From: an uncultured Micavibrio sp.
GTDB lineage: Bacteria; Pseudomonadota; Alphaproteobacteria; Micavibrionales; UBA1664
Length of the DNA: 43,154 bases
Assembly: GCA_937896295.1 (NCBI GenBank)
Contig: CALBME010000181.1
Span: 1 to 43,154 of the forward strand
Reading direction: 5' to 3'
The notes beneath the pieces were generated by a model. That model was not told the origin of the DNA and made no database searches. It saw nothing but the letters and a program-made list of their open reading frames with translations. Within the stretch, counting starts at the first letter, position 1, and each line of letters opens with the position of its first letter. This document shows, piece after piece, positions 12,595 through 38,105 of this stretch. Position numbers and translations under genes: made by a program.

Positions 12595-13485
12595 ATGTCC
12601 CGCCCGATCGTCCCTCAGAGCGTCATCATGCGTTATCTGAGCGGCTACTCCGAACGCCAGCTCAATGAAATCGAAGACACATACGAAAAAATTCACGCCG
12701 AACTCTTCGCAGGCCCCCTCTTCCTGAAACAGGACCGCATCCTGCTCCTGACTGCCGGCGCTGCCGGTGCAGGAAAATCCACCCATCTCAAGGCCAAGGT
12801 CGATAAAATCGCCCGCACCGAAGGCCGCCGTTTCGTTCATATCGACATCGACCAGATCCTGCCCCAGTTCCCGTCCTTCAAATGGTGCGCAGGCCAGCTG
12901 AGCGAATATTTCATGGATGTGAAGACCGACGAGCATCGCCGCGCCCTGCGCGAAACGACGACGGAATGGACGCTGGCTGCCAAGCACGTGGCCGACCGCC
13001 TGCTCAACGATGCGGTCGCCCTGGGCGTGCCGGTGGCGTTCGAGACATCCGCGCACAACAACCACATTCAGGATTTCTTCGAAGGTGCCCGCGCCAACGG
13101 CTATCAGATCGAAATTGACCTGTGCGATGCCCCCCTCTCGGTCAAGCAGGACGCAAGCCGCGAACGTTTTGACCGCGGCGAAGCCTATGTCGATCCCGCC
13201 GCCATTACGCGCAAGCACGAAGACGTCATCACGAACATGCCGAACTTTGCGCGCAACGCCGACCGCCTCAACATTCTGTGGCGCGAACATGCGCACAAGG
13301 ATCTGACGCTGGTGGCAACGTCGGAGCCGTCCGGCAATACGATCCACGACCGTCACGGCGCCAAATGCTTCGATGACACCCATCGCGGCGACGCCGGAAT
13401 CACGGTCGGCACCATGCTGCAGATGACCATGCATGCCCGCGCCCAGCGCGCCAACCAGAGCTTCCCCCGCACGACCCTGGGCTAA
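12595..13485 (+). CDS. Zeta-toxin-like / P-loop kinase family protein, with no adjacent antitoxin gene
   Basis: Walker A GAAGAGKST (aa 54-63), followed by hydrophobic-Asp RFVHIDID. The size and layout fit zeta toxin/AAA_33-like kinases. Only one in-frame start exists, with an AAGGAAA SD. An AT-rich 125-nt leader precedes it. Confidence 0.5.
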   Translation: MSRPIVPQSVIMRYLSGYSERQLNEIEDTYEKIHAELFAGPLFLKQDRILLLTAGAAGAGKSTHLKAKVDKIARTEGRRFVHIDIDQILPQFPSFKWCAGQLSEYFMDVKTDEHRRALRETTTEWTLAAKHVADRLLNDAVALGVPVAFETSAHNNHIQDFFEGARANGYQIEIDLCDAPLSVKQDASRERFDRGEAYVDPAAITRKHEDVITNMPNFARNADRLNILWREHAHKDLTLVATSEPSGNTIHDRHGAKCFDDTHRGDAGITVGTMLQMTMHARAQRANQSFPRTTLG

Positions 13486-19094: not shown

Positions 19095-21641
19095 TCAGGC
19101 CAGCACGTCCTTAACCTTTGCGGCCAGCTGCTGCAGGGTGAAGGGCTTGGGCAGGAAATAGGTATTCTCGCCAAACTGGCCCTTGAACTTGTCTTCCGTA
19201 TAACCGGACACGAAGATGACCGGCACGTCCGGGTAAATGGCGCGCAGCTTGGTCACCAGCGTGGGGCCGTCCATTTCGGGCATGATGACGTCTGTCACGA
19301 CCAGATCCGGCGCCTGACCATGGTTTTTAACGATGTCCAGCGCGGTTTCCCCGCCCGGCGCATCCAGGACCTGGTACCCCTTGTTGGCCAGTGCCCGGGC
19401 GCTGAAGGCGCGCACGGCGTCCTCGTCCTCGACCAGCAGGATGGTGGCGGTTCCGGTAAGGTCGGCGGCCTTTTCCTCGATCTTCGCGGCGGCGGCCTTG
19501 GCGGTCACCCCTTGCGCCGAACGCGGCAGGTAGATCGAGAAAGTCGTCCCCTGCCCGATGACCGAATCTACATGCACATATCCGCCCGTCTGGCGGATAA
19601 TGCCGTAAACGGTGGACAGGCCAAGGCCCGTGCCCGACCCCACCGGCTTGGTGGTGAAGAACGGCTCGAAAATGCGGCTGATATTCTCGCGCGGGATGCC
19701 GCAACCGGTATCCGCAACCGAGATGCAGACCCAGTCGCCCGCCGGCATGGTATCGGCCCCGCGTTGCTGCGGGGCGGTAGTGACGATCTGCTGCGTTTTG
19801 ATGGTCAGCTTGCCCTGGCCGTTCATGGCATCGCGCGCGTTGACGACAAGGTTGATCAGCACCTGTTCCATCTGGCCTTCGTCGGCCTTGATGAGACCGC
19901 TGGCCGCGTCATGGACGATATCCAGTTCGATCATCACGCCGATCAGGCGGCGCATCAGGTGGCTGAGTTCGGTCAGGGTTTCGGTGACGTCCAGCACCTT
20001 GGGCTGCAGCGTCTGCTGGCGCGAAAACGCCAGAAGCTGGCGCACAAGGTTGGCCGCCCGGTTCGCGTTCTGCTTGATCTGCATGATGTCGTTGAACGAC
20101 GGATCGCCCGGCTTGTGGCGCAGCAAAAGCAGGTCGCAGAAACCGATCATGGCGGTCAGCAGGTTGTTGAAGTCATGCGCGACGCCGCCGGCCAGCTGGC
20201 CCACGGCCTGCATTTTCTGCGACTGCGTGAACTGCGCCTCGAGCGCCTTCTGCTCGGTCAGGTTGATGAAGTGGACGACCGTATTGCGCCCGCGGTATTT
20301 CCGCGCGTGCATCTGCACCACCACGTCGCGGTCCTGCCCTTTGAGCGTGACCTCAAGCGGGTCCATCGACCGGCCTTCCTCGATCGTGGTCATCGCGCTT
20401 GTCAGCTTGGCGCGGTCGCTGTCGGCAATGACGGAGTCGAAATTGCGCCCTTCGATGGATTCCACCGGCATGCCCAGCATCAGGCTCAAGGCCTTGTTGC
20501 AATCGGACAGGACGCCGTGATTGTCGATCAGGGCGATGCCCAGCGGCGCCTCGTTGAAGAAGGTCTGGAAACGGTCTTCCGACTCTTTCAGGGCCTGGCG
20601 CATTTCGCGCTCGGATGTAAGGTCGTGCACGACCGCGCGGGTACGGACCATGCCGTCGGCCTCCAGCATCGCAGACTGGTTGATGGAGGCGAGGAAGATC
20701 TTGCCCGCCGGTCCCTTCATCTTGAGTTCCGCCACCTGACGCTGGCCGCCTTCGGTGGTGATGTCATAGGGCTTGGCCCCTTCCGGCGGATCGACCAGAT
20801 AGGTGTGGACACGGCCCACGGTCAGCAGGGTTTCGATATCGGTACCCAGCCACCGCGCAAGGGTCGCGTTGACGAACAGGAAACGCCCGTCTTCCCCGGC
20901 GGAGAAAAACCCGACCGGCGCATTGTCGGTAAAATCGATCAGCTTCTCACGCTCGGCCCGCACGGCCGCGTCCAGTTCGTGACGCTCTGTAATATCTTCG
21001 ATGCGCCAGTTGACCGTCCCGATCCAGCCCGGCACGGGTTGCGCCTCCACCTTGATCCAGCGGCGATAGCCATGGGTCATGGTGGAAAGCTCGATCCGCT
21101 CGGCCGTCCCGCGATAGGCAAGGTCGATCATCAGGTCGATCCGCTCAAGGCTTTCCGGCACCGGCTCGAACACCTTACGCAAGGATTTGAGCGAAATATC
21201 ATCCGCGCTGCCCGTCAGGTCCGCGCACAGGGCGCGCCATGTCTCGTTCATCAGGATGGTGCGGCGGCTGAAATCGGTGACAAGGCGCCCGGTCTTGTGG
21301 CTGCCATGAAATATCTCGTCCAGAATGCTGCGTTCCCGGCTGACATTACGGGCGGCCTGAATGACGAAGCCAAGGCTGGTGACGACCAGAATACCCAGCC
21401 CGAGGATAGCCAGCTGGATGTGGTGACGCTCGAGATTGAGTTTGCCGGCATGCCAAAGGACCAGCAGGGCCACCAGCACAAGGCTGCCGGTCAGCAGGAC
21501 GGTCCAGTAAACAGTGGTGTCCGTCCCTGCCGGACGCTGGGCGGACGGGCGCAGAACCGCCTCGGTACGGTCGGGGCGGATCATGCTCTCGGTCGATTGC
21601 GACAGCGGATCTATGGAGGAATGGTCGGGACGGTCAGACAT
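19095..21641 (-). CDS. cckA: Hybrid PAS histidine kinase, CckA-like
   Basis: Two N-terminal TM helices, PAS repeats, H-box region QLAGGVAHDFNNLLTAMIGFCDLLLLRHKPGDPSFNDIMQIKQNANRAANLVRQLLAFSRQQ (as I remember CckA), HATPase and a C-terminal receiver. It starts 12 nt after the flhB stop. Confidence 0.6.
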   Translation of the reverse strand: MSDRPDHSSIDPLSQSTESMIRPDRTEAVLRPSAQRPAGTDTTVYWTVLLTGSLVLVALLVLWHAGKLNLERHHIQLAILGLGILVVTSLGFVIQAARNVSRERSILDEIFHGSHKTGRLVTDFSRRTILMNETWRALCADLTGSADDISLKSLRKVFEPVPESLERIDLMIDLAYRGTAERIELSTMTHGYRRWIKVEAQPVPGWIGTVNWRIEDITERHELDAAVRAEREKLIDFTDNAPVGFFSAGEDGRFLFVNATLARWLGTDIETLLTVGRVHTYLVDPPEGAKPYDITTEGGQRQVAELKMKGPAGKIFLASINQSAMLEADGMVRTRAVVHDLTSEREMRQALKESEDRFQTFFNEAPLGIALIDNHGVLSDCNKALSLMLGMPVESIEGRNFDSVIADSDRAKLTSAMTTIEEGRSMDPLEVTLKGQDRDVVVQMHARKYRGRNTVVHFINLTEQKALEAQFTQSQKMQAVGQLAGGVAHDFNNLLTAMIGFCDLLLLRHKPGDPSFNDIMQIKQNANRAANLVRQLLAFSRQQTLQPKVLDVTETLTELSHLMRRLIGVMIELDIVHDAASGLIKADEGQMEQVLINLVVNARDAMNGQGKLTIKTQQIVTTAPQQRGADTMPAGDWVCISVADTGCGIPRENISRIFEPFFTTKPVGSGTGLGLSTVYGIIRQTGGYVHVDSVIGQGTTFSIYLPRSAQGVTAKAAAAKIEEKAADLTGTATILLVEDEDAVRAFSARALANKGYQVLDAPGGETALDIVKNHGQAPDLVVTDVIMPEMDGPTLVTKLRAIYPDVPVIFVSGYTEDKFKGQFGENTYFLPKPFTLQQLAAKVKDVLA

Positions 21642-24680: not shown

Positions 24681-25127
24681 TTATCCGCGTTCGCCCAGCG
24701 CCATGCGCAGCATGCCGACATTACGGCGGTAAAGGTTGGTGGCCAGCTGGTAATCCATCTGGTTGCGGTTCGCCTTGAACAGCTGTTCCTCGATCACGAC
24801 CCCGTTATTGTCCGGGCTTGCCTCGTAGACCGTTCTTTGCGCCTTTTCGGCCGCCGGGGTCTTGGTGCCGGGCTGCGTGCCGAAATGCATGCTGTTGCTG
24901 GCTTCCAGCGTGACAGGTGTCATTTTCAGCTGCGGCGCGGTGCCGGCGCCGGACTTGGCGGACGCGCCAAGCACGGATTCAAAATCAGCGGGCTTCAGGC
25001 TCATGGGCTGGTAGCCCGGCGTGTCGGCATTCGCGATGTTCTGCGACAGGACGCGCTGGTTCTGGTCAAGCCAGTCCATTTTCGACATAATGCCTTTCAG
25101 AAGGCCAATTCCAGAGAGCATTGTCAT
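24681..25127 (-). CDS. flgB: Flagellar proximal rod protein FlgB
   Basis: Rod N-terminal motif QRVLSQNIANADTPGY. ATG 25127 (MTMLSG...) is preferred over the track start at 25205, which would run through the sigma54 promoter. Confidence 0.9.
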   Translation of the reverse strand: MTMLSGIGLLKGIMSKMDWLDQNQRVLSQNIANADTPGYQPMSLKPADFESVLGASAKSGAGTAPQLKMTPVTLEASNSMHFGTQPGTKTPAAEKAQRTVYEASPDNNGVVIEEQLFKANRNQMDYQLATNLYRRNVGMLRMALGERG

Positions 25128-25167
25128 TTTTGTTTCTCGCTCAAGTTCAGGTACCCACCAACCTATT

Positions 25168-25183
25168 TGCGAAAACCGTGCCA
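25168..25183 (-). promoter_or_regulatory. Sigma54 (-24/-12) promoter for the flgB operon
   Basis: Minus strand reads TGGCACGGTTTTCGCA (TGGCAC-N5-TCGCA, with GG and GC at canonical spacing). The predicted 5' UTR to the flgB ATG is about 30 nt. Confidence 0.6.
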
Positions 25184-25540
25184 AACTTTTCAGACGACGA
25201 CACACCCTTTAAGCCCCTGAATGCGGAGGAAATTCCCCATCGCCAGACGGCCGTCGCCCTGAAAGACCGCAGCCTTCTGGGCCAGGTGCCGGAGATTACG
25301 GCAGCCGGACGCGGGGAAATTGCCCGTCAAATCATTGAAATTGCATATCAAAACGGCATAAAGGTGCGCGAGGACGCGAACCTTGCCGAAATCCTGGCCC
25401 GGTTTGAACTGGACTCCCCCGTTCCGACCGAGGCGCTGATGGCCGTGGGGGAAATTCTTGCCTATGTCTACCAGGCCAACGGGGAACCCAACCCGTTCGA
25501 CGCCGTGCTGAAGGCCGAACTCGCCAAGGGGGATGCATGA
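25178..25540 (+). CDS. FlhB C-terminal-domain-only paralog (EscU/YscU/FhlB-like small protein)
   Basis: The block AVALKD...PEITAAGRGEIARQIIEIAYQNGIKVREDANLAEIL...VPTEALMAVGEILAYVY matches the FlhB cytoplasmic domain downstream of NPTH. The start is uncertain: TTG 25121 in the track, GTG 25178 used here. Confidence 0.55.
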   Translation: MPNFSDDDTPFKPLNAEEIPHRQTAVALKDRSLLGQVPEITAAGRGEIARQIIEIAYQNGIKVREDANLAEILARFELDSPVPTEALMAVGEILAYVYQANGEPNPFDAVLKAELAKGDA

Positions 25541-25800
25541 CCCCCCGCCCCACCCCTTCCGCCCATGACCGGATGGAGGCGCTGATCGCCAAAATCGAAG
25601 AAGCCACCGCCGTGACGCAGAATGGCCGGCGCATAGACATCCGGTCGCTGGACGCGGAGTCGGCGGCGCTGGCCAAAATGCTGAAAGGCAAACCGGACGA
25701 AACCATCAAGCCCCTGCTGGCCCGCGCCGTACTGGCGATCGAACGCCTGACCCACGCGCTGGAGGACCAGGTCGCGGCGCTGAAGGACAAGAAAAAATAA
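25537..25800 (+). CDS. Hypothetical 87-aa helical protein in the flagellar locus
   Basis: ATGA overlap with the preceding gene. High G/C at third codon positions. Predicted helical with a Lys-rich end. No family recognised. Confidence 0.5.
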   Translation: MTPRPTPSAHDRMEALIAKIEEATAVTQNGRRIDIRSLDAESAALAKMLKGKPDETIKPLLARAVLAIERLTHALEDQVAALKDKKK

Positions 25801-26126: not shown

Positions 26127-26905
26127 CCCGCTCCAGAAAAATCTGCATCTATCTTTTATGCCTGCTGGGCGCCGCCATGATCCTTGGCGCCCCCATCGCG
26201 ATGGCGCAGGAACTGACCCTCGACATGGGGGGCGATGACGGCACCCTCGCCTCCCGCGTGGTCCAGCTTCTGGCCCTGCTGACGGTGCTGTCGCTGGCAC
26301 CCAGCATTCTCATCATGATGACCAGCTTTACGCGCATCATCATCGTCCTGTCCTTTCTGCGGACGGCGCTGGGCGTACAACAGACGCCGCCAAACACGGT
26401 GCTGATGTCGCTGGCCCTGTTCCTGACCTTTTTCATCATGTCGCCCGTCCTGACCCAGGCCTATGAGCAGGGCATCAAACCCCTGATGGCGCAGGAAATT
26501 GACGAAACGCAGGCCCTGACACGCACCACCGACCCGTTCAAGGCCTTCATGCTGCGCAACACGCGCGAGGCCGACCTGACCCTGTTCATGGACATGTCCA
26601 AGACGGAAGCCCCCAAAACCGCCATGGAAACTCCGCTTCAGGTGGTGATACCGGCCTTCATGATCTCGGAACTGCGCCGCGCCTTCGAAATCGGCTTCAT
26701 GCTGTTCCTGCCCTTCCTGATCATCGACATGGTGACGGCCTCCATCCTGATGTCGATGGGTATGATGATGCTGCCGCCCATCATGATCTCGCTGCCGTTC
26801 AAGATCATTTTCTTCGTCATGGTCGATGGATGGCACCTTGTGGTCGGATCGCTGGTCAAAAGCTTCGACACGGTGCAGGCCGGCGTCGGGGTTACAACAC
26901 CCTGA
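26123..26905 (+). CDS. fliP: Flagellar export apparatus protein FliP
   Basis: Signal peptide plus FliP blocks LTVLSLAPSILIMMTSFTRIIIVLSFLR.ALG.QQ.PPN and FMISELRRAFEIGF. Confidence 0.95.
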   Translation: MTRSRKICIYLLCLLGAAMILGAPIAMAQELTLDMGGDDGTLASRVVQLLALLTVLSLAPSILIMMTSFTRIIIVLSFLRTALGVQQTPPNTVLMSLALFLTFFIMSPVLTQAYEQGIKPLMAQEIDETQALTRTTDPFKAFMLRNTREADLTLFMDMSKTEAPKTAMETPLQVVIPAFMISELRRAFEIGFMLFLPFLIIDMVTASILMSMGMMMLPPIMISLPFKIIFFVMVDGWHLVVGSLVKSFDTVQAGVGVTTP

Positions 26906-27752
26906 ACTGGCGGCTGAAGCCGTCTTTAAGCGCCTGCGCGGTCCATTGATACCGGCGGATGTTATCGGCCACCTTCGGCCCCGCCCCGGCATGGACCAGC
27001 CGTGCATATAACCCCGTCACCTGCGGAAGGCGTTCCGCCAACCCCCGGATCCGGCCGGGCCGGGATGCCATGACATAGGCATTCACCACACGCTGGCCGA
27101 TATGGGGCATATCCTTGGCAAACGGCCAGTGCCCGTGCGCCAGCAGCCAGATATCGCGCAGCTGGGCATCGGCCACCCCCATGACCTTTTCCACGTCGTC
27201 TTCAAGATCGATGAAATGAATCGCCCCACTGGCATCCACCGTCAGGTTCTTGGGATAGGGCTGGCCGTGGAACTGCTCGTCATTATGCAGCGCCGCCATG
27301 GCCTCGCCCACCTTGCGGATCAGATCGCCGCGCTGCGCCCGCCCGCTTCCGTGCAGGGCAAGCCAGATGGATGTACCGGCATCGCTTAAGACAAGGTGGT
27401 CGGAGGTCTGGTCGAAAATATGGGGCACGTTGTGGCCGCGGCCGGCCAGATGCCGCAGGCGGCCCGCTTCAAACGCCAGCGCACGCTTGCGGTTAAAGAT
27501 ATGACTGCAGCGAAGCACGGGCGGCATCAGGGGCGTGCGCACCGCGCGTTGAAACAGCGGGGCCAGCGGAAAGGACTTGTCCTGCGCCAGCTTGACCCAT
27601 GCCGGCTGGCCCGCAAACGTCGTACGGTAGGTACGCTGACGGGCCTGAGGGGCGATATCCGTATCGGGCGGCAACATGGACAGGGACATATGACTCACGT
27701 GAAACGGCTGTTTTGCGCCATTCTTATAGCCGATTGCGTGGACGGCATGCAA
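26892..27752 (-). CDS. LPS-kinase/RIO-like protein-kinase-fold protein with a substituted catalytic Asp (possible pseudokinase)
   Basis: AWVKL (N-lobe Lys), catalytic-loop-like LHNDEQFHGQPYPKNLTV and metal-binding-like HFIDLED. The usual HGD is HGQ (Gln164, codon 27261-27263). The start is uncertain. The 3' end overlaps fliP by 14 nt (convergent). Confidence 0.5.
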   Translation of the reverse strand: MHAVHAIGYKNGAKQPFHVSHMSLSMLPPDTDIAPQARQRTYRTTFAGQPAWVKLAQDKSFPLAPLFQRAVRTPLMPPVLRCSHIFNRKRALAFEAGRLRHLAGRGHNVPHIFDQTSDHLVLSDAGTSIWLALHGSGRAQRGDLIRKVGEAMAALHNDEQFHGQPYPKNLTVDASGAIHFIDLEDDVEKVMGVADAQLRDIWLLAHGHWPFAKDMPHIGQRVVNAYVMASRPGRIRGLAERLPQVTGLYARLVHAGAGPKVADNIRRYQWTAQALKDGFSRQFRVL

Positions 27753-28439: not shown

Positions 28440-31400
28440 TTATTCCTTGGTGGCCTGACGGGCGGCCTCGGCCGCCTGCCCCGGCTCGTTCGGGGCCTGC
28501 GCCCCCGCGGGGGCGTCAGCGGCGGGCACCGCAGGGGCATCCCCCACCTCCCCGGCCTTCGGTTCGACCTTGGCGGGTTCAGTCTTGGCGGGTTCCGGTT
28601 TGGGAGCCGCGTCCTTGGCTGCGGCGGGTTTTTCCGCCACCGCTTTGGCAGGCGCCTGATAAGCCTTAAGCACGTCCTGGAACATGTTCACTTCCGACAC
28701 CAGCTGCAGCAATGTTTCGCGGTCGGCCAGCGTCGCTTCCTGCGCCGTGCGCGTGACCAGCTGGAACGGCTGGTTCAGGTCGGAGCGGCGCATGATGTCC
28801 GAATACGCCACGCGCAGGTCTTCCAGTTTCTGTGTTTCCCCCGACAGGTTCAGGGCCAGCGCCTGGTTGAGCACCAGTTGCGCCTGCTCATGGGTGGGCG
28901 CGCGCGTGGCGCTGAGATTGGCGGCCTTCACCAGCTTGCCGAAGGCGTCCGCCGCAACCGGCCATTTCTGCGAAGCCCACGCGATATCGGCGGTCAGTTT
29001 CAGCGTCTCGGAGTCTTCCTGCAGGGCCGAAAGTTCCGCCAGCGCGTCATCCGCGCGTTTCAGCTGGCCCTTGGCCTTGGCGCGCAGCAGGGCAAAGCGC
29101 TTCGCGTCCACATCGGCAACCTTGCCCGCAACATCAGTGCGGTTAAGCGCCTTATCGATGATCTTGAGCGCATCATTGGGCTGGTCGTTCAGGATACGGA
29201 TCGCCGCCGCACGCTGCGCATAGCGGACGGAATCCTGCGGTGTCGCCGTGGTCACGACCATGGGTTCGATCAGGTCCGCCGCGCGTTCCAGAAGATCGAC
29301 CTGCACCATCTTGTCGGCAATAGCCAGCGTGATCTGTTCACCGTCCGCGCCCGCGGGCATCAGTTCGTTGAATTCGGCGGCAACCGCCGCCGCCTCGATC
29401 GGGGACATGGCTTCACGCGTCTTGCCTGAGAAAAGTTCGCGGAAGGCCTTTTGCATCACCGCCACCAGTTTTTCGCGCGTGCCCGCGTCCTGCGTCATGG
29501 CCGCCGCATCCCGCAGGATGGTCAGCCCCCTTCGCTGCTGTCCGCCGGTCACGTAAATCAGCCCCAGACGTTCGAGCGTCTGGCTTTCAAGGTCATCGCC
29601 CCGCCATCCATAGCGAAAGCGTTCCAGTTTGCGGACTGCATCATCCCGCGCGATGGTGCGGGCCGACAGTCCGCGTTCCACAAGGGCAAGCGTCGACCGC
29701 AGCGGATAAGGACCGTCCAGCCCTTCCGACGACTCGCGGTAGAATTCTGACGCGCCCGTCATGTCGCCGCGTAACGCAGCAATACGGCCGCGGTAAAACG
29801 CCAGCGCCGTATCGCGGTCCAGCGTCAGGCTTTCGCCCGACGCCTTGTCGAACATATCAAGCATGGTGTCCGCGACATTCACATCGCCGCGTGCCAGCAC
29901 CGCCTCGATCAGCGGGGGCAGGACAAGGGTCTGAAGCCGCGCGGGATAGGTGCTCAGTATTTTTATGGCGTTAACGGGCATGGCCTTTTGCGCCTCAGGC
30001 AACTGCCCGGCCTGCGCCAGGTTGAACGACTTCCACAGGGCGATTTCGTTCAGCGTCTCAAGACCCGGCGTGGCAAAGGCCCGCGCCGCATCGTCCGTTT
30101 CACCCTTCAGGGCTGCCACTGCGCCACTGATCGCCTGAAAGTCGGGCGAGCTGCGCAGGTCCGGCATGAAGGACAGCGCCATCGACAGGAACCCTGTCGC
30201 TTCGTGTGGCAATCCCTGTGCCAGCATGAATTTCGCGCCCGAAATGATTTCCGGCAGTTTGCGGTTATCCGGGGCCGTGGCGATCTTCGCGTCGATGGAA
30301 TGACGCATGTCCAGGAACTGTTTGGGCCCGCCCAGCGCCCAGTCCTTGAAGGCAAAAATGGTGGTCGGGGCATTTTCCTTGGTGTCGGCGGGCTTGTCGT
30401 CGGTGCTGGCGGCAGCCACGCGCGCGCCGGCCGCCGGGCGCGGTCCCGTGGCAGACAGGCGTAAGCCCCCCTGCCGCGCAATCACGACTTCGGTCGGCAG
30501 AACCGAAATGCGGATACCGTCCGCCTTGGGTTTGATGACCACACCGACAATCGCCGGGATGGTTTCAAAATCGACGTAAGAATCGGTGTTGATCAGGCGG
30601 CTGTCGGCGCGCCCCACCGTAATGACGGCCAGATCGTCACCGATGAGCGGATCCGGCAGGCGCAGAGCGCCGACCGCATTGGTCATGGGAATATGCACGA
30701 TGGGGCCTGCCGCCGTATCCGCAAAATCACGCTCCATGGATGCGGACTTCAGGTCGCTTTTCTGGCCGGTGATATAAAGACGCCAGACCAGCCCCGCCCC
30801 TTCGGGCCGTACATAGGCCCCCGCCGGCAGGCGGATGCGGTAGGCGGACCCGCCATCGACGCTGACCTTGTCCACCGGCCCCAGCGCCTTGGCATCGGGC
30901 CCGGAAACCTGCGGGGGGACGGACAGTTCTTCCTGGCTTAAGACCATCCACAGATACCCGCCCCGCACAAAAGCCGCGAGGGCAAGGCCCTGCGTCGAGC
31001 CAACAGTGATCAGCGCCGATCCGGTAAACGGCACCGGCGTGGTAGCGGCAGGCGTAAGGTTGATGGGCGCATCCGGCCCCGCCGGCGTAGCGGCGGCCAT
31101 GACACCCGCCGGAGTGTCCAGCGACGGGGCGGTCGATGTCGATGCAGGCAAGGCCGGCGTTTCTTTCTTTGGATCGACCGGATTTGCGTTTGCTGCGTTT
31201 TCAGTGACCAGCGAGGTCGATGTTTCCGTCGTTTTCGCCGGAGCGATTTTCTCCTGGACCTTGGCCTTGGCTTCATCGGCGGCAGCAACCGGCGACACGG
31301 TCTTTTCCGGCACGGATTCAGGTGCCGTGACTTTTGCGGCTGCTGCCTTTGCTGCAGCAATCGCCGCTGCAACGGCATCTTTGGGCGCAGCATCCGGCGT

Positions 31401-31874
31401 ACCGGCAGCCGGTGATTCTTCCGTCAGGCGGGCGGGAACGGAGGGCGTTTTGGCAGAATCCTCTTTTTTCGGGGCGGCCTGCGGCACGGCTGACAGGACC
31501 TGCGGAACCGGGTCTTTGGGATAAAGATCGACGAACAGGCGGTTGCCCAGGGTCAGGGTGCGGTGACGGGCCATCGCGCCCGTCTTCACGACATACGCAT
31601 TCGCCCCCTCCGCCGTAATGGTGGTCGCCGGGATCACGCCGCGCAGGGCACCCGCACCCTCCACGCTGACGGGTCCGTCGAACTGTATTTTGAGGGTCGT
31701 ATCCCCGGCTTCGGTCACGGTGGCCTTGGGCAGCCCCGCGCCTGAAAACACCAGCCGAATGAAGTCGGCCTTCTTTTCACCGCGCACGGCGACGCGGGCA
31801 GCGTCCTGCGCTTGGGCGGCAAGGCTGCAAAACAGACCTAAAAGAATTACGGCAAGAAGAGAGATTCTGCGCAT
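28440..31874 (-). CDS. 1144-aa exported protein: beta-rich (AMIN-like?) N-domain, Ala/Pro-rich linker, second beta-rich region, long TPR-like helical repeat region
   Basis: Signal peptide MRRISLLAVILLGLFCSLAAQA/QD. Low-complexity stretches of A/P/K/E near both ends. About 600 aa of helical repeats. Lies directly downstream of two MotB-like genes. Confidence 0.7.
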   Translation of the reverse strand: MRRISLLAVILLGLFCSLAAQAQDAARVAVRGEKKADFIRLVFSGAGLPKATVTEAGDTTLKIQFDGPVSVEGAGALRGVIPATTITAEGANAYVVKTGAMARHRTLTLGNRLFVDLYPKDPVPQVLSAVPQAAPKKEDSAKTPSVPARLTEESPAAGTPDAAPKDAVAAAIAAAKAAAAKVTAPESVPEKTVSPVAAADEAKAKVQEKIAPAKTTETSTSLVTENAANANPVDPKKETPALPASTSTAPSLDTPAGVMAAATPAGPDAPINLTPAATTPVPFTGSALITVGSTQGLALAAFVRGGYLWMVLSQEELSVPPQVSGPDAKALGPVDKVSVDGGSAYRIRLPAGAYVRPEGAGLVWRLYITGQKSDLKSASMERDFADTAAGPIVHIPMTNAVGALRLPDPLIGDDLAVITVGRADSRLINTDSYVDFETIPAIVGVVIKPKADGIRISVLPTEVVIARQGGLRLSATGPRPAAGARVAAASTDDKPADTKENAPTTIFAFKDWALGGPKQFLDMRHSIDAKIATAPDNRKLPEIISGAKFMLAQGLPHEATGFLSMALSFMPDLRSSPDFQAISGAVAALKGETDDAARAFATPGLETLNEIALWKSFNLAQAGQLPEAQKAMPVNAIKILSTYPARLQTLVLPPLIEAVLARGDVNVADTMLDMFDKASGESLTLDRDTALAFYRGRIAALRGDMTGASEFYRESSEGLDGPYPLRSTLALVERGLSARTIARDDAVRKLERFRYGWRGDDLESQTLERLGLIYVTGGQQRRGLTILRDAAAMTQDAGTREKLVAVMQKAFRELFSGKTREAMSPIEAAAVAAEFNELMPAGADGEQITLAIADKMVQVDLLERAADLIEPMVVTTATPQDSVRYAQRAAAIRILNDQPNDALKIIDKALNRTDVAGKVADVDAKRFALLRAKAKGQLKRADDALAELSALQEDSETLKLTADIAWASQKWPVAADAFGKLVKAANLSATRAPTHEQAQLVLNQALALNLSGETQKLEDLRVAYSDIMRRSDLNQPFQLVTRTAQEATLADRETLLQLVSEVNMFQDVLKAYQAPAKAVAEKPAAAKDAAPKPEPAKTEPAKVEPKAGEVGDAPAVPAADAPAGAQAPNEPGQAAEAARQATKE

Positions 31875-31925
31875 CGGATTCCTTAAAATTCAACCTGCCA
31901 TGGGGTCCTGATCCGGTCAACGCAA

Positions 31926-31945
31926 AGGGGGGTTTTTACCCCCCT
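31926..31945 (-). terminator. GC hairpin (possible attenuator/terminator) between the MotB-like gene and the 1144-aa gene
   Basis: AGGGGGG-loop-CCCCCCT, followed on the minus strand by TTTGCG. The U-tract is weak. Confidence 0.35.
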
Positions 31946-31957
31946 GCTTTCACGGCC

Positions 31958-32821
31958 CTATTGCATATTCCCGTCATCGGCATCGACGCGGATTTCAATA
32001 CCCGGCTGTTTGCCCGTCCCCTGCGCGATCACGACAAAAGGTTTGCGATACCCCGCATCCCGGAAAAGCGCGGCAAAGGCCGATACCTGCGCAAGCGCGC
32101 TATCCCAGTCGCCGGAATCATCGGGAATACCGACCACGGTGATGCGGTTCGACAGGGTGGCAAGCCGGTTCGCCAGCCCCTTGGTGATGCGCTGCCCGTC
32201 CGCCGACAGGGCGTTGCCGCTGAAAATCTTGTCGGCATCGAGTACCAGGCGCAAGTGATCGCGGGCGGGCATAATACGCACATCGTCCTGAAGCTTCACC
32301 TGCGCGACTGCGTCCTTGAGAATGCCCTGCAGATAGCCAAGGTCGAGGCCCGAGCCGAAACTGGTGCGTGAAATATTCTGCCCGGCCTGGCTGCCGGCTT
32401 CGCCCCGCCCCGCCCCGCCATGCATGTTGCGGGCGTTCACGTCAGCAGTGTTCGGCGCCTGAATATTGGCCGGGTCCTTCATGGAATACAACATCAGGAA
32501 GAAACACAGCATGATGGAAAAAAGGTCCGTAAACGAAATCAGCCACATCCGGCCCTGAACCAGTTTGGCTTCCCGGTCGTCATAGGCATATTCACGTGGC
32601 TGGTGACGCTCGACGCTTCCGGCCACCGTATTCGAGGCCGCGCTGGCAAAGGCCATGGCATTCAGGTCGTGCGACAGGTGCGAGCTATGCGCGGTTTGGT
32701 TTGCTGCGTTTAGCGGCCCCTCATGCAGCGGCCCGGAGGTCAGGCCCCGTTCTGCACTGGCTTTCTTTTCCTCCTTCTCCAGGAGGTCCAGCGCCGCAAG
32801 GATCTTGTCCATGTTATCCAT
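31958..32821 (-). CDS. MotB-family protein (conserved TM Asp, long cytoplasmic N-extension, divergent OmpA-like C-domain)
   Basis: The TM segment WLISFTDLFSIMLCFFLMLYS aligns with E. coli MotB YADFMTAMMAFFLVMWLIS, including the Asp (D99). The C-terminal alpha/beta region is OmpA-like in layout, but I could not find the N..LS..RA motif. Confidence 0.6.
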   Translation of the reverse strand: MDNMDKILAALDLLEKEEKKASAERGLTSGPLHEGPLNAANQTAHSSHLSHDLNAMAFASAASNTVAGSVERHQPREYAYDDREAKLVQGRMWLISFTDLFSIMLCFFLMLYSMKDPANIQAPNTADVNARNMHGGAGRGEAGSQAGQNISRTSFGSGLDLGYLQGILKDAVAQVKLQDDVRIMPARDHLRLVLDADKIFSGNALSADGQRITKGLANRLATLSNRITVVGIPDDSGDWDSALAQVSAFAALFRDAGYRKPFVVIAQGTGKQPGIEIRVDADDGNMQ

Positions 32822-32823
32822 GC

Positions 32824-33420
32824 TTATCCCCCGCCCCGCACGAAGCGCAGTTCAATGGAAGGTCTTCCGCGATCGGCATAGCCAATACCGATAAGGTCAG
32901 CGTCCAGCCCGTCATCCACCAGTTCCCGCGCCATGGCGGGCAGATCGCCGGTGCCGTCCGCACCGTCAAGCGCAATGATCTGCAGCATGAATTTTCCGCC
33001 GCGGTTATACGTCGTCATGACACTGCCAAGGCGCGCGCGCAGTTCGGGCCAGCGCTCTGCGAACTGGTCACGGGGAATATCCACTACCATCATTTGGCCG
33101 GAACTTCCCACGCGCGTCTGCTGAAACCCGACATCGGGAAGAACGCTGCGCAGGCCTGCGGCGGCGGCCTCCTCCGCATCGCCGTTCGTCCCGGCATCGT
33201 CGCCGCCAGCCGTATCCGAACGCCCGTAACCGACAAAACCGAACGTATTGCTTAAGGACGCCTGCAGCATTTTCTGTTTGATGCTGGATTCAGGCGACAG
33301 GGCGTTCAGGACAATGAAGAAAGCCAGGAGCGCGATGAACACCGACACGGTCAGTGTCAGGGTCAGGGTGCGCATATCGACGGGCGATACGTGGTCGTCG
33401 CGGGTTTTCTTGTCACGCAT
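32824..33420 (-). CDS. MotB-like protein lacking the conserved TM Asp
   Basis: The single TM TLTVSVFIALLAFFIVLNALS has the MotB-like AFF..L..S pattern but Ser at the Asp position. The C-terminal alpha/beta region resembles the neighbouring MotB-like protein. 2-nt gap to the next gene. Confidence 0.5.
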   Translation of the reverse strand: MRDKKTRDDHVSPVDMRTLTLTLTVSVFIALLAFFIVLNALSPESSIKQKMLQASLSNTFGFVGYGRSDTAGGDDAGTNGDAEEAAAAGLRSVLPDVGFQQTRVGSSGQMMVVDIPRDQFAERWPELRARLGSVMTTYNRGGKFMLQIIALDGADGTGDLPAMARELVDDGLDADLIGIGYADRGRPSIELRFVRGGG

Positions 33421-33496: not shown

Positions 33497-34075
33497 TCAA
33501 TCAAAGCTGGCCAGCAGCTTGTCGATATCTTCCTGGCTCATGGCATTGGCGGGCATTTGCGGACCGTTCAGCAGGCGGGCATCCCCGGTGCGCGTATCCT
33601 GGGAAACCGTATCGTCATTATGACCGACGATTTCCAGCAGGTGTTCGACCTTGGACTGGATTTCACCCAGCACGCCCACGACCTTTTTAATACGCTGGCC
33701 GGTAACGTCCTGAAAGGAACAGGCCTCATAGATCTTGGTGACTTCATCGGAAACCGTCTGTGCCAGCGGGTCAGCTTTGCCGGCAGCGGCCTTTTCCATG
33801 ACTTCGCACGACGACATGATGGTATCGGTCGCCTGTTTGGTCGCGGTCACGACGGCATCCAGTTCATCGGTGGCGCCGGGCACGTGCTTGGCGGTCAGGT
33901 CCTGCGGGCGCAGGCCGGCAATGTCCTGACGGAACGCCTGAATGACATCCAGAACGCCGCGCAGTTCCTTGATGACGGCTTCCTGATTGGCGTCGGTGGA
34001 ATCCGCCATTTTCGCAATGACGGAATTGACGATGGTGACTACCTTGCTGCGATCGTACTGATTTGCGGCTGACAT
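33497..34075 (-). CDS. cheZ: CheZ-family CheY-P phosphatase (short, 192 aa)
   Basis: FQDVTGQ matches E. coli FQDLTGQ (catalytic D143/Q147). LLNGPQ block is present. The C-terminal SQEDIDKLLASFD matches the CheY-binding tail SQDQVDDLLDSLGF. Confidence 0.85.
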   Translation of the reverse strand: MSAANQYDRSKVVTIVNSVIAKMADSTDANQEAVIKELRGVLDVIQAFRQDIAGLRPQDLTAKHVPGATDELDAVVTATKQATDTIMSSCEVMEKAAAGKADPLAQTVSDEVTKIYEACSFQDVTGQRIKKVVGVLGEIQSKVEHLLEIVGHNDDTVSQDTRTGDARLLNGPQMPANAMSQEDIDKLLASFD

Positions 34076-34078
34076 GGC

Positions 34079-34468
34079 TTAGAGCGCCCCCAGCACGGCC
34101 GTGATCTTGGCCTTCAGCGTTTCCGCATTGAATGGCTTCACGATGTAATTGTTCACGCCGGCCTGTTTGGCCGCGATGATGTTCTCGGTCTTGCTTTCCG
34201 CCGTCACCATGATGAAGGGGACGCTTTTGTTTTCGCTGGCGCTGCCGCGAATGCCTTTCAGCAGGTCCATGCCGCTCATCGGCTCCATGTTCCAGTCGGA
34301 AACGATCATGCCGTATTTTTTCTCACCGAACATTTTGAGCGCGGCGCTGCCATCGCTGGCTTCGTCGATATTGGGAAACCCGATCTGGTTGAGAAGGTTG
34401 CGGATGATGCGGCGCATGGTGGCGTAATCATCCACGACCAGCACGTTCATAGTTTTATCGACTGCCAT
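34079..34468 (-). CDS. cheY: Chemotaxis response regulator CheY
   Basis: 129-aa single receiver domain: VLVVDDYATMRR, SDWNMEPMSG, PFIMVTAE and YIVKPF. Confidence 0.9.
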   Translation of the reverse strand: MAVDKTMNVLVVDDYATMRRIIRNLLNQIGFPNIDEASDGSAALKMFGEKKYGMIVSDWNMEPMSGMDLLKGIRGSASENKSVPFIMVTAESKTENIIAAKQAGVNNYIVKPFNAETLKAKITAVLGAL

Positions 34469-34623: not shown

Positions 34624-35550
34624 TCAGGGCCGTCCCAGTGCATCGAGGCCAGGGAGCGCCGCTGAACCGGCAGGCGCGGGCGTCGCCAGCGGCGCGCCGG
34701 TATTGGCCCCCATGAACCCGGTCGGCTGGGGCTGGGCCCTTGCCTGTGGTTTCTGGTCGGGCAGCTTGTTCATCTCGGTCAGACGCACCGTCAGCTCGTT
34801 CGCCTTTTGCGTATCCATGGCGGCGATGATGGGCGCACTTTTACGTTCCGACATTTTGGAAACAACCTGCAGCAACACGGTCATGTCCATCTGGTTGAAA
34901 ATGGCCGCGGCCTCTTTCGGCTTCATCTGCTCATAGATTTTCACAAGACTGGTGATCTTGGAATTCTGTTCCTTCTGCTGCTGCCCCAGCAGTTTTTCGA
35001 TCTGATCCTTCAGACCCGTCAGTTCGGCAATCTTGGTGTCGATCTGCTTTTCGGACGCCTTCATCAGCGCCTCGCGCGTATCGAGGGCCTTTTCCCGGGC
35101 CTCCAGCTGCTGGCGGCGCTTGGCCAGATCGGCCAGAAGCTGCATTTGTTCCGGGGAATCGGCCATCTGCTGGCTGGCCGGATCCGCCCATACCTCAGGC
35201 AGAGTCGCGTTGGGATTGGGCAGCGTCACCTTGGGCTGGTTGTCCTGGGATGGCTGTGCCTCCCCTTCCGCAGCTGGCAGGATGCCGGGATCATTGGTTA
35301 TGGATGATGCCGCCGGAGCGGCCTTATCCGAAGGCGGGGTTTTGACCGGGGCGTTCGCGGCATCGGCCTTGGGCTCCTCCCCGGCGGCGGGCTGCACCTC
35401 GGCCAGTGCCGACGCGGTCAGGTCCTTCACGTCGGTCACGGTTTCCCCCATGCGCACGGCAAAGGCGGCCATGGCGACCAGGACAAGAAGTGGCAGGATA
35501 CGAAAGCGGGTGAGAAAATCGTTCATCATGAGAATTCTATCATAATGCAA
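34624..35550 (-). CDS. MotE/FlbB-like (MgtE-N-like) flagellar motility protein
   Basis: N-terminal TM, Pro/Ala-rich region, coiled coil, then VKIYEQMKPKEAAAIFNQMDMTVLLQVVSKMSERKSAPIIAAMDTQKANELT, which is typical of MotE-type proteins. Confidence 0.55.
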   Translation of the reverse strand: MHYDRILMMNDFLTRFRILPLLVLVAMAAFAVRMGETVTDVKDLTASALAEVQPAAGEEPKADAANAPVKTPPSDKAAPAASSITNDPGILPAAEGEAQPSQDNQPKVTLPNPNATLPEVWADPASQQMADSPEQMQLLADLAKRRQQLEAREKALDTREALMKASEKQIDTKIAELTGLKDQIEKLLGQQQKEQNSKITSLVKIYEQMKPKEAAAIFNQMDMTVLLQVVSKMSERKSAPIIAAMDTQKANELTVRLTEMNKLPDQKPQARAQPQPTGFMGANTGAPLATPAPAGSAALPGLDALGRP

Positions 35551-35587: not shown

Positions 35588-36238
35588 CTACCTGCCGCGG
35601 TTTTTAATCGCCCGGAACAGGTCGCGCTCGGCTTCCGAATACAGGCTGTCGTCATCGGCGGCGGCCAGCGGGTCGACCCCGCGCTCAGCATCCGGGTCCC
35701 GGATGGCGAAAGGACTACCCGCCGGGGACGAAGACGCAGGCGGCACCACCGACGCGTCCAGTTTGCGCAGATGCTGGACATAGGATGCCTGCACACCCTG
35801 CGGCTGACTATCCTGACCAGAACGGCGCTCAGGGGCGGATTTGGAGGGCTCCGAGATGGTCCGGGGCGAAGGCGCCGGTTGGGGGGCATTGATGGCAGGA
35901 GCCATGGGACGCGCCTTGTCGACCAGCCCTTCAAGACGGCTGGCCAGCCGGTCGCCGCTATCCGTGATCAATTGCAGCTCGTCCGACAGGGCCATGGCCT
36001 TGTCCACGGCGGCCTGAAGTTCAGAACCGGAGTCGCGGGCCGCTTCTTTCAGGCCGGATATGGCCCGGTCGGCACGGTCGAGGTTTTTGATGAGATCGCG
36101 GACGACCTTGTCGAGGTCCGACTTGGAATCGCGCAGACGGCGCAGCTGCAGCGACAGGCGCGCGGCATAGACAATCGTCAGGCCCAGCAGGACCACCACG
36201 ACAACGTCGAGAATGAGGGAAACGGGAGCGCCTTCCAT
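35588..36238 (-). CDS. Membrane-anchored coiled-coil protein downstream of fliM (possibly the DUF6468 family)
   Basis: N-terminal TM (LILDVVVVVLLGLTIVYAA), a coiled-coil segment of about 90 aa and a disordered Pro/Ser-rich C-terminus. The family name is from memory only. Confidence 0.5.
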   Translation of the reverse strand: MEGAPVSLILDVVVVVLLGLTIVYAARLSLQLRRLRDSKSDLDKVVRDLIKNLDRADRAISGLKEAARDSGSELQAAVDKAMALSDELQLITDSGDRLASRLEGLVDKARPMAPAINAPQPAPSPRTISEPSKSAPERRSGQDSQPQGVQASYVQHLRKLDASVVPPASSSPAGSPFAIRDPDAERGVDPLAAADDDSLYSEAERDLFRAIKNRGR

Positions 36239-36289: not shown

Positions 36290-37429
36290 TTATTCAGACT
36301 TCTTTGCCGGCGGAATGTACTTGTCGATCCGCACGGCAAGGTTGCCCTTTTTCTGTCCGGTCGATGCCTTGTACATCGGGAACTGGCCACAGCGCACCTC
36401 GATCCGATCGGACGGCGACGCATTGAAAAAGACAGTCGAACCGGGCTTCCAGTTCAGCAACTCACCCAGCGGGACCGTCTTCTCGGCCAGCACGGCCTGA
36501 AGGTCAATATCCGTTAAATACAATTCGTTAGTGAGGTGAGTTTCCCAAATCGAGTCACGGCCGAACTTCTCGCCCATGAACATCTGGAGCAGAAGTTCGC
36601 GGATGGGTTCGAGGGTAGCATACGGCAGCAGGATTTCCACCCGGCCGCCACGATCGCCCATGTCGATCCGCAGGCGCGCGAGCACGCAGGCATTGGAACC
36701 CTGGGTGATGGCGGCAAAGCGCGGGTTGGTTTCCATCCGCTCCATCGTGAAGCTGACGGGGGACAGGGGGTCGAACGCCGACGACATGTCGGACATGACC
36801 ACCCCGACCATGCGTTCGATCAGTTTGGTTTCGATGGTGGTATAGGGGCGCCCCTCGATCCGGATGGCAGGGGTGCCTTTACGACCCCCGAGCAGGACGT
36901 CGACGATGGAATAGATCAGGGCGGAATCCACCATCAGCAGGCCGCCGTTATCCCACTCCTCGGCCTTGAATATAGACAACATCGCCGGCAGCGGGATGGA
37001 GTTCATGTAGTCGCCAAAGCGCACCGTGGACACCTGGTCCAGCGACACTTCGACGTTATCCGATGTCAGGTTGCGCAAGGACGTCGACATCAGGCGGACC
37101 AGCCGGTCGAACACGATGTCGAGCATCGGCAGGCGTTCGTAATTGACCAGCGCCGAATTGATGAGCGCCATGACGCCGGAGGCCTGCTCCTGCCCCGATG
37201 CGTCGTTGAATCCTAAAAGGGAGTCGATTTCATCCTGGTTGAGGATACGGGTGCCGCCGCTGTCGTCGGTCTCGGCCGCCTCGCCGCCCCCCACGGGACG
37301 CCCATCGACACCAAGAGCCTGCGATGCCATTGCTTCCCACTCGGCCATCATCGCCTTTTCCTCATCGCTCATCGGGGTGTCGGTCGACCCCTGCGGCGTT
37401 GTGTTCGGCGGTGCGTCTGTATCGGCCAT
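36290..37429 (-). CDS. fliM: Flagellar motor switch protein FliM (with an N-terminal extension of about 60 aa)
   Basis: CheY-P binding motif LNQDEIDSLLGF at aa 63-74, a FliM middle domain and a C-terminal SpoA-like region (GELLNWKPGSTVFF). Confidence 0.93.
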   Translation of the reverse strand: MADTDAPPNTTPQGSTDTPMSDEEKAMMAEWEAMASQALGVDGRPVGGGEAAETDDSGGTRILNQDEIDSLLGFNDASGQEQASGVMALINSALVNYERLPMLDIVFDRLVRLMSTSLRNLTSDNVEVSLDQVSTVRFGDYMNSIPLPAMLSIFKAEEWDNGGLLMVDSALIYSIVDVLLGGRKGTPAIRIEGRPYTTIETKLIERMVGVVMSDMSSAFDPLSPVSFTMERMETNPRFAAITQGSNACVLARLRIDMGDRGGRVEILLPYATLEPIRELLLQMFMGEKFGRDSIWETHLTNELYLTDIDLQAVLAEKTVPLGELLNWKPGSTVFFNASPSDRIEVRCGQFPMYKASTGQKKGNLAVRIDKYIPPAKKSE

Positions 37430-37523
37430 GCTGAATCGTTGATGCGTTAACGTTAGTTAACAATATAGCACAGATCGTGCCAAAAAAGCGGAAAAACGAA
37501 AAACCCCAGGTCTGTCCCGGCTT

Positions 37524-38105
37524 TTACTGGATCAGGATTTCCTGAAACAGAACGTCCTGCACCTTCACCGGCTGGGCCGCCAGATTGACACGGTAAAGAA
37601 GCTCCTGCCGTAATCTGTAAATACCAGCTGAGCCGCGCAGGTCCTGCACGCGCATTTCGCGCAAGAAAGTCTGGAACTGATCGACCACGCGCGGGGCCAC
37701 CGTGTTCAGGGACTCAAGGTCGGCGGGGTTCGCCACCTCCAGCTTGACCTTCAGCTTCAGGAACCGCGACGGTCCGCCTGCACTGGAAAGATTGACGAGC
37801 AGATCCGGCAATTCCATAAACTGCGGACCGCCGGCGGCATGATCGCCGCCCTCGCCGCCCGCCTCGCCGCCGCCTTCATGTTCGGCACTGACCGCAGCCT
37901 CGCCTTCGGCCGGGGTCTTCTTGGGTCCGATCACGCCGGTGAAATACAGCCCCGCCCCCACCCCGATGAGGAGCAGCGGGATCACGATCAGCAACAGCTT
38001 CTTCGCGCCAAATCCTTTACCGCCTTCATCATCCAGCGGTTTGACTTCGCCTTCCGCGCCTTCGGCAGCGGCGGCTGCGGGTACGTCTTCGTCTTTTTTG
38101 GCCAT
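37524..38105 (-). CDS. fliL: Flagellar basal-body-associated protein FliL
   Basis: Single TM (LLLIVIPLLLIGVGAGLYF) and a C-terminal FliL domain (FMELPDLLVNL...FLKLKVKLEV...FQEILIQ). Confidence 0.9.
   Translation of the reverse strand: MAKKDEDVPAAAAAEGAEGEVKPLDDEGGKGFGAKKLLLIVIPLLLIGVGAGLYFTGVIGPKKTPAEGEAAVSAEHEGGGEAGGEGGDHAAGGPQFMELPDLLVNLSSAGGPSRFLKLKVKLEVANPADLESLNTVAPRVVDQFQTFLREMRVQDLRGSAGIYRLRQELLYRVNLAAQPVKVQDVLFQEILIQ

Follow-up and report, generated by a model that had tools for sequence, protein, structure and literature searches.

A Putative Stator Module Pairing MotB with an Asp-less MotB Paralogue beside a Large MotK/FssB/PflA-Type Protein Gene in an Uncultured Micavibrio sp.

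Introduction

How is a flagellar stator assembled when one operon encodes two MotB-like proteins, only one of which carries the putative proton-binding Asp, followed by a very large exported protein? This question is raised by a 43,154-nt stretch of DNA from an uncultured Micavibrio sp. (assembly GCA_937896295.1, contig CALBME010000181.1, positions 1 to 43,154 of the forward strand; hereafter, the window), in which a fliL operon ends with genes for proteins of 198, 287 and 1144 amino acids (aa). In the accepted picture, two equivalent Asp residues alternate in the MotA5MotB2 unit. An initial annotation of the window regarded the three products as a flagellar, stator-associated periplasmic or inner-membrane module, and it suggested that no such assembly had been described for this lineage. 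Here, these proteins were examined by profile comparison, structure prediction and gene-neighbourhood analysis. We consider it fairly probable that the locus encodes a stator module, in which MotB and a non-conducting paralogue, denoted MotB′, are recruited and anchored by a MotE/MotK-type scaffold at the end of an alphaproteobacterial fliL operon.

Results

The three open reading frames (ORFs) were verified on the minus strand, downstream of a fliL-fliM-cheY-cheZ set, with the coordinates and the 2-nt gap proposed in the initial annotation. They and their key codons are as follows.

32824..33420, minus strand: MotB′ (198 aa), assigned from the ORF and profile comparisons
33343..33345, minus strand: Ser26 codon of MotB′; this residue aligns with Asp99 of the 287-aa protein, which is Asp32 of MotB in E. 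coli numbering
31958..32821, minus strand: MotB orthologue (287 aa), assigned from MotB_plug, hhalign and synteny
32525..32527, minus strand: Asp99 codon of MotB; this putative proton-binding residue is invariant in the family alignment (A2) and in the joint alignment of orthologues (A6)
28440..31874, minus strand: putative MotK/FssB/PflA-type periplasmic scaffold, the giant (1144 aa), assigned from homologues, an AlphaFold2 (AF2) model, Foldseek and the literature

Homologues of each of the three genes were found at 41–98% identity and their order was kept in independent assemblies, indicating that they are not chance ORFs. A Shine-Dalgarno-like run, GGGGGA, lies within the 3′ end of the MotB′ gene before the ATG of motB.

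MotB′ is predicted to consist of a short basic cytoplasmic N-terminus, a transmembrane (TM) helix (residues ~17–41), a plug-like helix (43–60), a disordered linker (61–83) and an alpha/beta periplasmic domain (~100–195). A set of 31 canonical MotBs, collected from the loci found in a genome scan, was used as the reference alignment. When the profile of the close MotB′ family was compared with canonical MotBs by hhalign, a probability of 94% was obtained, and the alignment covered no more than the plug and the C-terminal half of the TM helix. The profile of the broad family was aligned with canonical MotB at 98.7% (E 3e-16, residues 15–180) and with the 287-aa family at 97.6% over the full length, and removal of the members having canonical OmpA motifs gave 98.1% against canonical MotB. 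On these comparisons MotB′ is assigned as a full-length MotB paralogue devoid of the Asp. In an alignment of 143 members of its family, the column at the MotB Asp was occupied by Ser (119), Gly (12), Ala (11) or Cys (1) and never by Asp, while an FF pair was invariant and N39, K/R48, S55 and F60 were nearly so. The family profile was also used for an exhaustive HMMER search. Counted as clusters at 50% identity, the matches numbered 10 at E<1e-30, 19 at E<1e-10 and at least 492 at E<1e-3; among the 150 matches listed, nearly all were 200–260 aa in length and carried the signature L-S-L-F-I-x-L-L-A-F-F-I-V-L-N. No description of this family was found in the searchable literature, which was queried on DUF6468, FssA and Asp-less or paired MotBs, so that the family is apparently uncharacterised.

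In a subgroup of the MotB′ family the OmpA domain of Pfam is complete (E 1e-10 to 5e-16); weak OmpA matches were obtained for two tested members. The canonical peptidoglycan-binding motifs are absent from MotB′ of the window. Its AF2 model (mean predicted local distance difference test score (pLDDT) of 66, with 80–87 in the C-terminal domain) comprised the TM helix, then another helix and a b-b-a-b-a-b-b domain, and this order of strands and helices is compatible with an OmpA-like fold. The periplasmic domain is probably, although not demonstrably, a decayed OmpA-like domain.

A genome scan using the alignment of the 287-aa family, with narrow patterns, gave only seven alphaproteobacterial loci and many canonical MotBs of other phyla; taxon labels were taken from the titles of the metagenome-assembled genomes (MAGs) only. 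The MotB′ gene was located directly upstream of a motB or motB-like gene in all 15 loci inspected, often with an overlap of 4–8 nt. The loci with the pair are as follows.

The window; L002–L005, from four close MAG species; L006, labelled Rhodospirillaceae; and L008, a fragment
L044, L046–L049, L051 and L052: seven distant metagenomic loci, where the pair is flanked on one side by motE (or cheY/cheZ or cheW) and on the other by a giant gene of 925–1141 aa, cut by the contig end in L048
L050 (46% GC): fliI-fliJ-MgtE_N-fliK-flgD-flgE-motA-motB′-motB-fliL-fliM-fliN

The proteins of L006, L007 and L008 are very similar, yet the MAG titles read Rhodospirillaceae, uncultured Rhizobium and Asaia bogorensis, respectively; two or more of these titles probably reflect an error of binning or naming.

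The strict adjacency and frequent overlap of the two genes suggest that their products are made in equimolar amounts, as is more usual for subunits of a single complex. They speak against MotB′ being a decoy or brake that forms a non-conducting MotA5(MotB′)2 unit or a MotA cap to tune the number of active stators, as does the occurrence of the pair without cheYZ. A brake would account for a TM/plug segment that is conserved yet never bears the Asp, and for the location of MotB′ next to cheY/cheZ, which are behavioural control genes, in several loci; on balance we regard it as unlikely.

The operon of L050 is of a non-alphaproteobacterial type, its MotB is fully canonical, and the giant was not found nearby. 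As this locus holds motA-motB′-motB, the Asp-less paralogue extends beyond the MotK-type clusters, and as it holds the pair without the giant, MotB′ travels with MotB and not with the scaffold. Conversely, Bradyrhizobium and Humitalea have the giant but no MotB pair. MotB′ accompanies MotB rather than the scaffold, and the trio is a frequent, not an obligate, combination. The two B genes of L050 (7177–9518; NCBI GCA_029979985.1) were also inspected individually: motA is followed by an Asp-less protein of 250 aa (P0092) with a full Pfam OmpA domain and then by the canonical MotB.

L050 also bears on the possibility that MotB′ is a TonB/TolA-like third single-pass subunit, which would sit on the exterior of the MotA ring or on the periplasmic domain of MotB, link the stator to MotE/MotK and aid plug release. 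The 5:2 motors include examples, ExbBD-TonB among them, of a third, single-pass protein that forms a periplasmic heterodimer with the B subunit (PMC9389320). Furthermore, Caulobacter has FssA (CC_1064), a protein of unknown fold that is either secreted or anchored, and plug mutations of MotB suppress its motility defect (PMC7885107); hence plug-release helpers exist in this flagellar type. That MotB′ might be the equivalent of FssA is kept as a lead. However, L050 has MotB′ with no MotK-like scaffold gene nearby, and the homology of MotB′, which takes in the whole protein with its pore-lining TM segment, is to MotB and not to TonB or TolA. We hold such a role to be improbable and retain the reading of MotB′ as a non-conducting partner of MotB. 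A non-flagellar Tol/Exb-type system was rejected because the flagellar synteny is invariant.

The domains suspected for these proteins in the initial annotation were recovered by Pfam in part: the 287-aa protein matched MotB_plug (34 bits; cut-off 24), MotB′ alone remained below the same cut-off (17.7 bits), OmpA was matched by neither, and the giant had no Pfam or NCBIfam match. The profile of the 287-aa family found MotB in the PDB (6ysf, E 7.6e-8), with an alignment extending into the OmpA-like domain, and was aligned with the 31 canonical MotBs at 99.35% (E 6e-21) through the TM helix, plug and OmpA-like domain. Its single N-terminal TM helix carries Asp99 within WLISFTDLFSIMLCFF. The surrounding WLISFTDLFSxxLCFF is invariant in the family, for which the mean column identity is 54%; the cytoplasmic extension of ~90 aa is conserved in neither length nor sequence. 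In the joint alignment, the motifs GHxD, NWxLSxxRA and NRRVxI, which contact peptidoglycan, are lost by degrees:

L046: GHSDP...NNWDLSLARA...SRRVDI
L044: GHTTP...SKWGLSLSRA
L006 and L008: GGVGQ...WELALARA
Window, 287-aa protein: GIPDD (VVGIPDD)...DWDSALAQV

In the window, the motif Arg is replaced by Gln and the loops flanking the motifs are deleted. This Arg is invariant in the 31 canonical MotBs and is gone from 12 of the 14 sequences of the family alignment. These alignments bore out the initial annotation as regards Asp in the 287-aa protein, Ser in the 198-aa protein and the missing peptidoglycan-binding motif in both. The 287-aa protein had been taken there for a novel MotB-like accessory, which does not hold: it is assigned by sequence and position as the MotB orthologue of the cluster with a degenerate peptidoglycan-binding site, and the gene at the same position has both Pfam MotB_plug and OmpA in the syntenic loci L046, L048 and L052, and weakly in L051.

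As initially noted, motA is absent from the window: no MotA_ExbB domain was detected in any large ORF of the 43 kb, or in the flanks of the alphaproteobacterial-type relatives. Together with the loss of peptidoglycan-binding motifs from both proteins, this absence would be expected if the 287-aa protein and MotB′ were accessory or degenerating paralogues and a canonical motAB encoded elsewhere drove the flagellum. Such an explanation conflicts with the invariance of Asp99 and the whole TM segment, with the family-wide identity given above, and with the ordinary OmpA-bearing MotBs that relatives encode at the same position. In addition, motA and motB are unlinked as a rule in Caulobacter (CCNA_00787 and CCNA_01644; PMC7885107), where that arrangement is normal. 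We judge this explanation quite unlikely, and the 287-aa protein is treated below as the MotB of the proposed stator module.

The giant belongs to a tight metagenomic family (50–75% identity) with distant members (25–28%) in Bradyrhizobium and Humitalea. Its AF2 model, built from a 21-sequence alignment (mean pLDDT 74.6), comprised the following regions, exactly the layout that the initial annotation had read by eye.

31809-31874, minus strand: putative signal peptide, residues 1–22, MRRISLLAVILLGLFCSLAAQA/QD read by eye from the sequence; N-terminal helix 2–18 in the AF2 model
31518..31799, minus strand: N-terminal beta-sandwich, AMIN-like, residues 26–119, with nine short strands and one short helix (AF2, pLDDT ~85)
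30474..31505, minus strand: disordered Ala/Pro-rich linker 124–279, then a second beta-rich region 287–467 (AF2, pLDDT <50 and 80–90, respectively)
28656..30350, minus strand: alpha-helical superhelix like that of tetratricopeptide repeat (TPR) proteins, residues 509–1073, all helical (AF2, pLDDT ~90), followed by a disordered Pro/Ala/Lys tail

The giant is predicted to be Sec-exported and hence periplasmic. Within the family, four of 16 N-domains matched Pfam AMIN-like and three of 16 matched AMIN, TPR_2 was found in four of the 21 members, and a profile match to the TPR-like domain of MalT was obtained (E 5.8e-4). The top Foldseek match in the PDB was 9hmf_K, a periplasmic scaffold chain of C. 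jejuni (E 4.5e-10), followed by generic TPR proteins; there were 196 matches at E <= 1e-3, and among the matches listed almost all were TPR or helical-repeat proteins. We take 9HMF chain K to be PflA, as its 773 residues fit PflA 16–788 modelled in PMC12222027. The analogy to PflA/PflB drawn in the initial annotation was therefore apt.

The giant gene lies downstream of fliL-fliM-DUF6468-motE in Bradyrhizobium, Humitalea and many MAGs. In detail, it follows fliL-fliM-DUF6468-(270 aa) in Bradyrhizobium and fliL-fliM-DUF6468-(207 aa)-cheY-cheZ in Humitalea. Every relative examined was syntenic with fliLM, in agreement with the flagellar context proposed at the outset. In Bradyrhizobium (L001:10001-13792) and in the proteins P0015-P0018, two tandem N-terminal beta domains with an F.R...D signature were observed, whereas the giant of the window has one.

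By operon position and domain order, the giant is best understood as an unusually large new member of the already-known MotK/FssB/PflA group, and its scaffold logic is not new, because PMC10954123, PMC7885107 and PMC13023049 describe AMIN-like plus TPR proteins of this kind. The same three papers (on MotE/MotK, on FssB/CC_2058 and in review, respectively) overturn the earlier suggestion that the lineage had no such assembly described. That the giant is a scaffold with no described counterpart, merely analogous to PflA/PflB or MotX/MotY/FlgT, would agree with its missing Pfam and NCBIfam matches and with the missing PflA sequence match in the PDB. Yet its position and domain order are those of MotK and FssB, the Campylobacter scaffold chain is its top fold match, and CC_2058, MotK and PflA have already been grouped in a 2026 review (PMC13023049); we find this very unlikely. 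The giant is accordingly discussed below as a putative MotK/FssB/PflA-type scaffold.

The remaining genes of the operon were assigned as follows.

37524-38105, minus strand: fliL, by Pfam and NCBIfam, head of the operon (fliL and fliM span 36290..38105)
36290-37429, minus strand: fliM, by Pfam and NCBIfam, head of the operon
35588..36238, minus strand: DUF6468 protein (Pfam, E 1.9e-18), PflI-like by position
34624..35550, minus strand: MotE-type protein, 308 aa (Pfam MgtE_N 27.5 bits, cut-off 25.9; NCBIfam collar_FlbB, E 7e-7)
34079-34468, minus strand: cheY, by Pfam and NCBIfam
33497-34075, minus strand: cheZ, by Pfam and NCBIfam
31928..31944, minus strand: GGGGG-loop-CCCCC hairpin downstream of the motB stop and ahead of the giant start, bearing a weak T tail, from a consensus scan only

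The MotE-type protein has an N-terminal TM helix, a coiled coil and an MgtE_N-like domain. It resembles the CC_2059 type of MotE and is a candidate E-ring protein and partner of the giant. Its 308-aa reading starts at TTG and has no exact copy in the protein collection; the deposited annotation probably starts at a downstream ATG (MMNDF...). The cheY and cheZ genes (33497..34468) are inserted between motE and the MotB pair, and the same insertion was found in L002-L006, L043, L046 and L051. The hairpin is a possible weak attenuator that might reduce read-through into the giant gene. An Rfam search found nothing.

The left half of the window holds housekeeping genes, and the flagellar cluster begins at flhB (~21.6 kb). 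A hybrid histidine kinase (19095-21641, minus strand; PAS x2-HisKA-HATPase-REC), CckA-like by its architecture, abuts flhB; according to a preprint, CtrA-phosphorelay genes of Rhodospirillum rubrum adjoin flagellar operons. Farther left are another hybrid kinase (6831-9104) and a LuxR-type response regulator (9035-9697), and a 296-aa Zeta_toxin/AAA_33-like P-loop protein is encoded between smpB and recA (12595-13485, plus strand). At 25121-25800 (plus strand), a 139-aa protein corresponds to the FlhB C-terminal domain alone (Bac_export_2 positions 261-335); after it, immediately ahead of fliO-fliP, comes a conserved 87-aa ORF, and L002 and L003 have both. Between fliP and a TetR gene, a 286-aa ORF (26892-27752, minus strand) has no Pfam match, is conserved in L002 (45% identity) and holds a kinase-like HG..YPKNL...IDLEDD stretch.

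Discussion

In the proposed module, protein identities were computed and the stator mechanism is what we infer; from published homologues or analogues come the localisation of MotE-type proteins to the motor, the binding among MotE, its TPR partner and MotB, and the requirement of the TPR partner for rotation. The TM-anchored MotE would make an E-ring-like structure near the MS-ring, to which the TPR region of the giant would bind, while its AMIN-like domain and long linker could reach the cell wall. The TPR array would grip MotB by its periplasmic domain, and in this way stator units containing MotA encoded elsewhere would be recruited, unplugged and mechanically anchored. MotB′ would pair with MotB, either as the second B chain in the MotA5 ring or through the OmpA-like dimer interface, and may serve as a non-conducting structural or regulatory partner; the translation of the two would be coupled. 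With the peptidoglycan-binding residues missing from both proteins here, the scaffold is probably the main anchoring route.

Several observations weigh against this interpretation. For MotB′, the AF2 model is only moderately confident, and the C-terminal domain alone reached an hhalign probability of only 65% against OmpA-like domains. Foldseek on the model gave weak IspF-like matches, nothing below E 1e-3 and no OmpA/MotB fold, so that the fold assignment rests on profile comparisons. For the giant, the N-domain matched Pfam AMIN-like PF24837 below threshold (E 0.0057), and the best PDB match of its profile, the AMIN region of M. xanthus PilQ, was weak (E 0.12). The TM-scores between the giant and 9hmf_K are low (0.17/0.24), other TPR proteins are only ~30-fold worse in E-value, and the whole-giant profile against PDB sequences gave generic TPR matches only, with no PflA. 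The tie of the giant to MotK (Q3IY86) and CC_2058 (Q9A6M9) consists of operon position and described domain order, with no sequence link. The lack of motA in the window counts in the same direction, as does the reliance on computation for the organism of the window. A heteromeric stator assembly of MotB and MotB′ is what we infer, and the heterodimer is purely so; we know of no precedent for a stator with a single Asp.

A bolder version can be formulated. The torque unit in many flagellates, including this lineage, could be an asymmetric 5:1:1 MotA5-MotB-MotB′ complex with one proton-binding Asp, and the stator here, whose two B periplasmic domains would not bind peptidoglycan directly, could be held wholly by the MotE/MotK scaffold. 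We offer this as a speculation that is rather less likely to be right than wrong by a wide measure. If MotB′ does enter the stator, the picture of two equivalent, alternating Asp residues in MotA5MotB2 changes; should it rather help in plug release or anchoring, it provides a handle on stator activation.

As to novelty, the initial claim for the whole trio stood only for the 198-aa protein, an apparently undescribed Asp-less MotB paralogue of a large conserved family, since the giant and the 287-aa protein are of known kinds. The giant lends support to the recent proposal that scaffolds made of an E-ring and TPR spokes occur widely outside Campylobacterota and spirochaetes. The more useful outcome concerns the B subunits, namely an Asp-less MotB family encoded directly upstream of motB in operons of both alphaproteobacterial and non-alphaproteobacterial types. 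MotB of the window is a variant of a known protein, and the MotB′ family is the part worth following up. In addition, the graded loss of the peptidoglycan site in MotBs encoded beside the gene of a MotK-type scaffold, whose AMIN-like match is sub-threshold, offers natural variants for comparing scaffold with cell-wall anchoring.

Comparison with Known Systems

Canonical MotB (6ysf and 6ykm) shares with the 287-aa protein the order of an Asp-bearing TM helix, plug and OmpA-like domain. The latter differs in GHxD being changed to GIPDD and NWxLSxxRA to DWDSALAQV, in its ~90-aa extension and in having no adjacent motA.

A published counterpart in gene order is the Cereibacter sphaeroides operon fliL2-pflI-motE-motA2-motK (PMC10954123). 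MotK is Sec-exported, and besides an eight-strand N-domain (residues 23-119 plus a short helix) modelled as AMIN it has proline-rich disorder and a TPR-like region. The protein is found at the flagellated pole and interacts with MotE and MotB2, and its loss leaves the flagellum paralysed (PMC10954123). MotK of the Cereibacter Fla2 system (RSWS8N_12065) and the giant have in common the Sec export, a beta N-domain of ~100 residues with a similar number of strands, disordered segments and a TPR-like C-region, as well as a gene at the end of a fliL-pflI-motE operon beside a stator gene. That stator gene is motA2 in Cereibacter, whereas it is motB with MotB′ in the window. MotK has 652 aa, while the giant of 1144 aa has a far longer linker, the extra beta-rich region 287–467 and a longer TPR array. 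The DUF6468 gene of the window occupies the slot of pflI in the Cereibacter and Caulobacter operons.

The authors of PMC10954123 named CC_2058 of Caulobacter as a distant counterpart of MotK. FssB/CC_2058 is a TPR protein with a Sec signal, and its deletion leaves flagella assembled but paralysed (PMC7885107). Like the giant gene, its gene follows fliL-fliM-pflI (CC_2060)-motE (CC_2059); unlike the window, the Caulobacter operon has no stator genes, and the two proteins are likened by description. The 2026 review, in which CC_2058 is termed PflA-like, proposed that MotE, FlgY and FlbB form the E-ring, with MotC, MotK, CC_2058, PflA and FlcB as TPR partners (PMC13023049). MotC of Sinorhizobium meliloti is, like the giant, a periplasmic TPR-rich partner of MotE acting on MotB (PMC13023049), but it has no AMIN-like domain and is encoded elsewhere in the flagellar cluster. 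CP1-4 of Rhodobacterales were also considered and were dropped as unrelated.

PflA of C. jejuni resembles the giant in its beta-sandwich, linker and long TPR superhelix. As modelled in the 9HMF paper, with the signal peptide removed, it has 16 TPR motifs that an unstructured linker joins to an N-terminal beta-sandwich, and it forms spokes that position the stators together with PflB, FliL and MotB (PMC12222027). PflA differs from the giant in having no second beta-rich region, and a gene for a PflB-like partner is not evident in the window.

For the B subunits, the nearest parallels are non-flagellar. AglQ/AglS with AglR and ExbD with TonB are paired single-pass B-type (MotB/TolR-like) proteins, encoded together and presumed to act with one A-type pentamer, and whether such pairs form hetero- or homodimers is described as an open question (review PMC9389320). 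A conserved mid-membrane Asp is predicted in AglQ as well as in AglS, whereas the MotB′ family is consistently without it.

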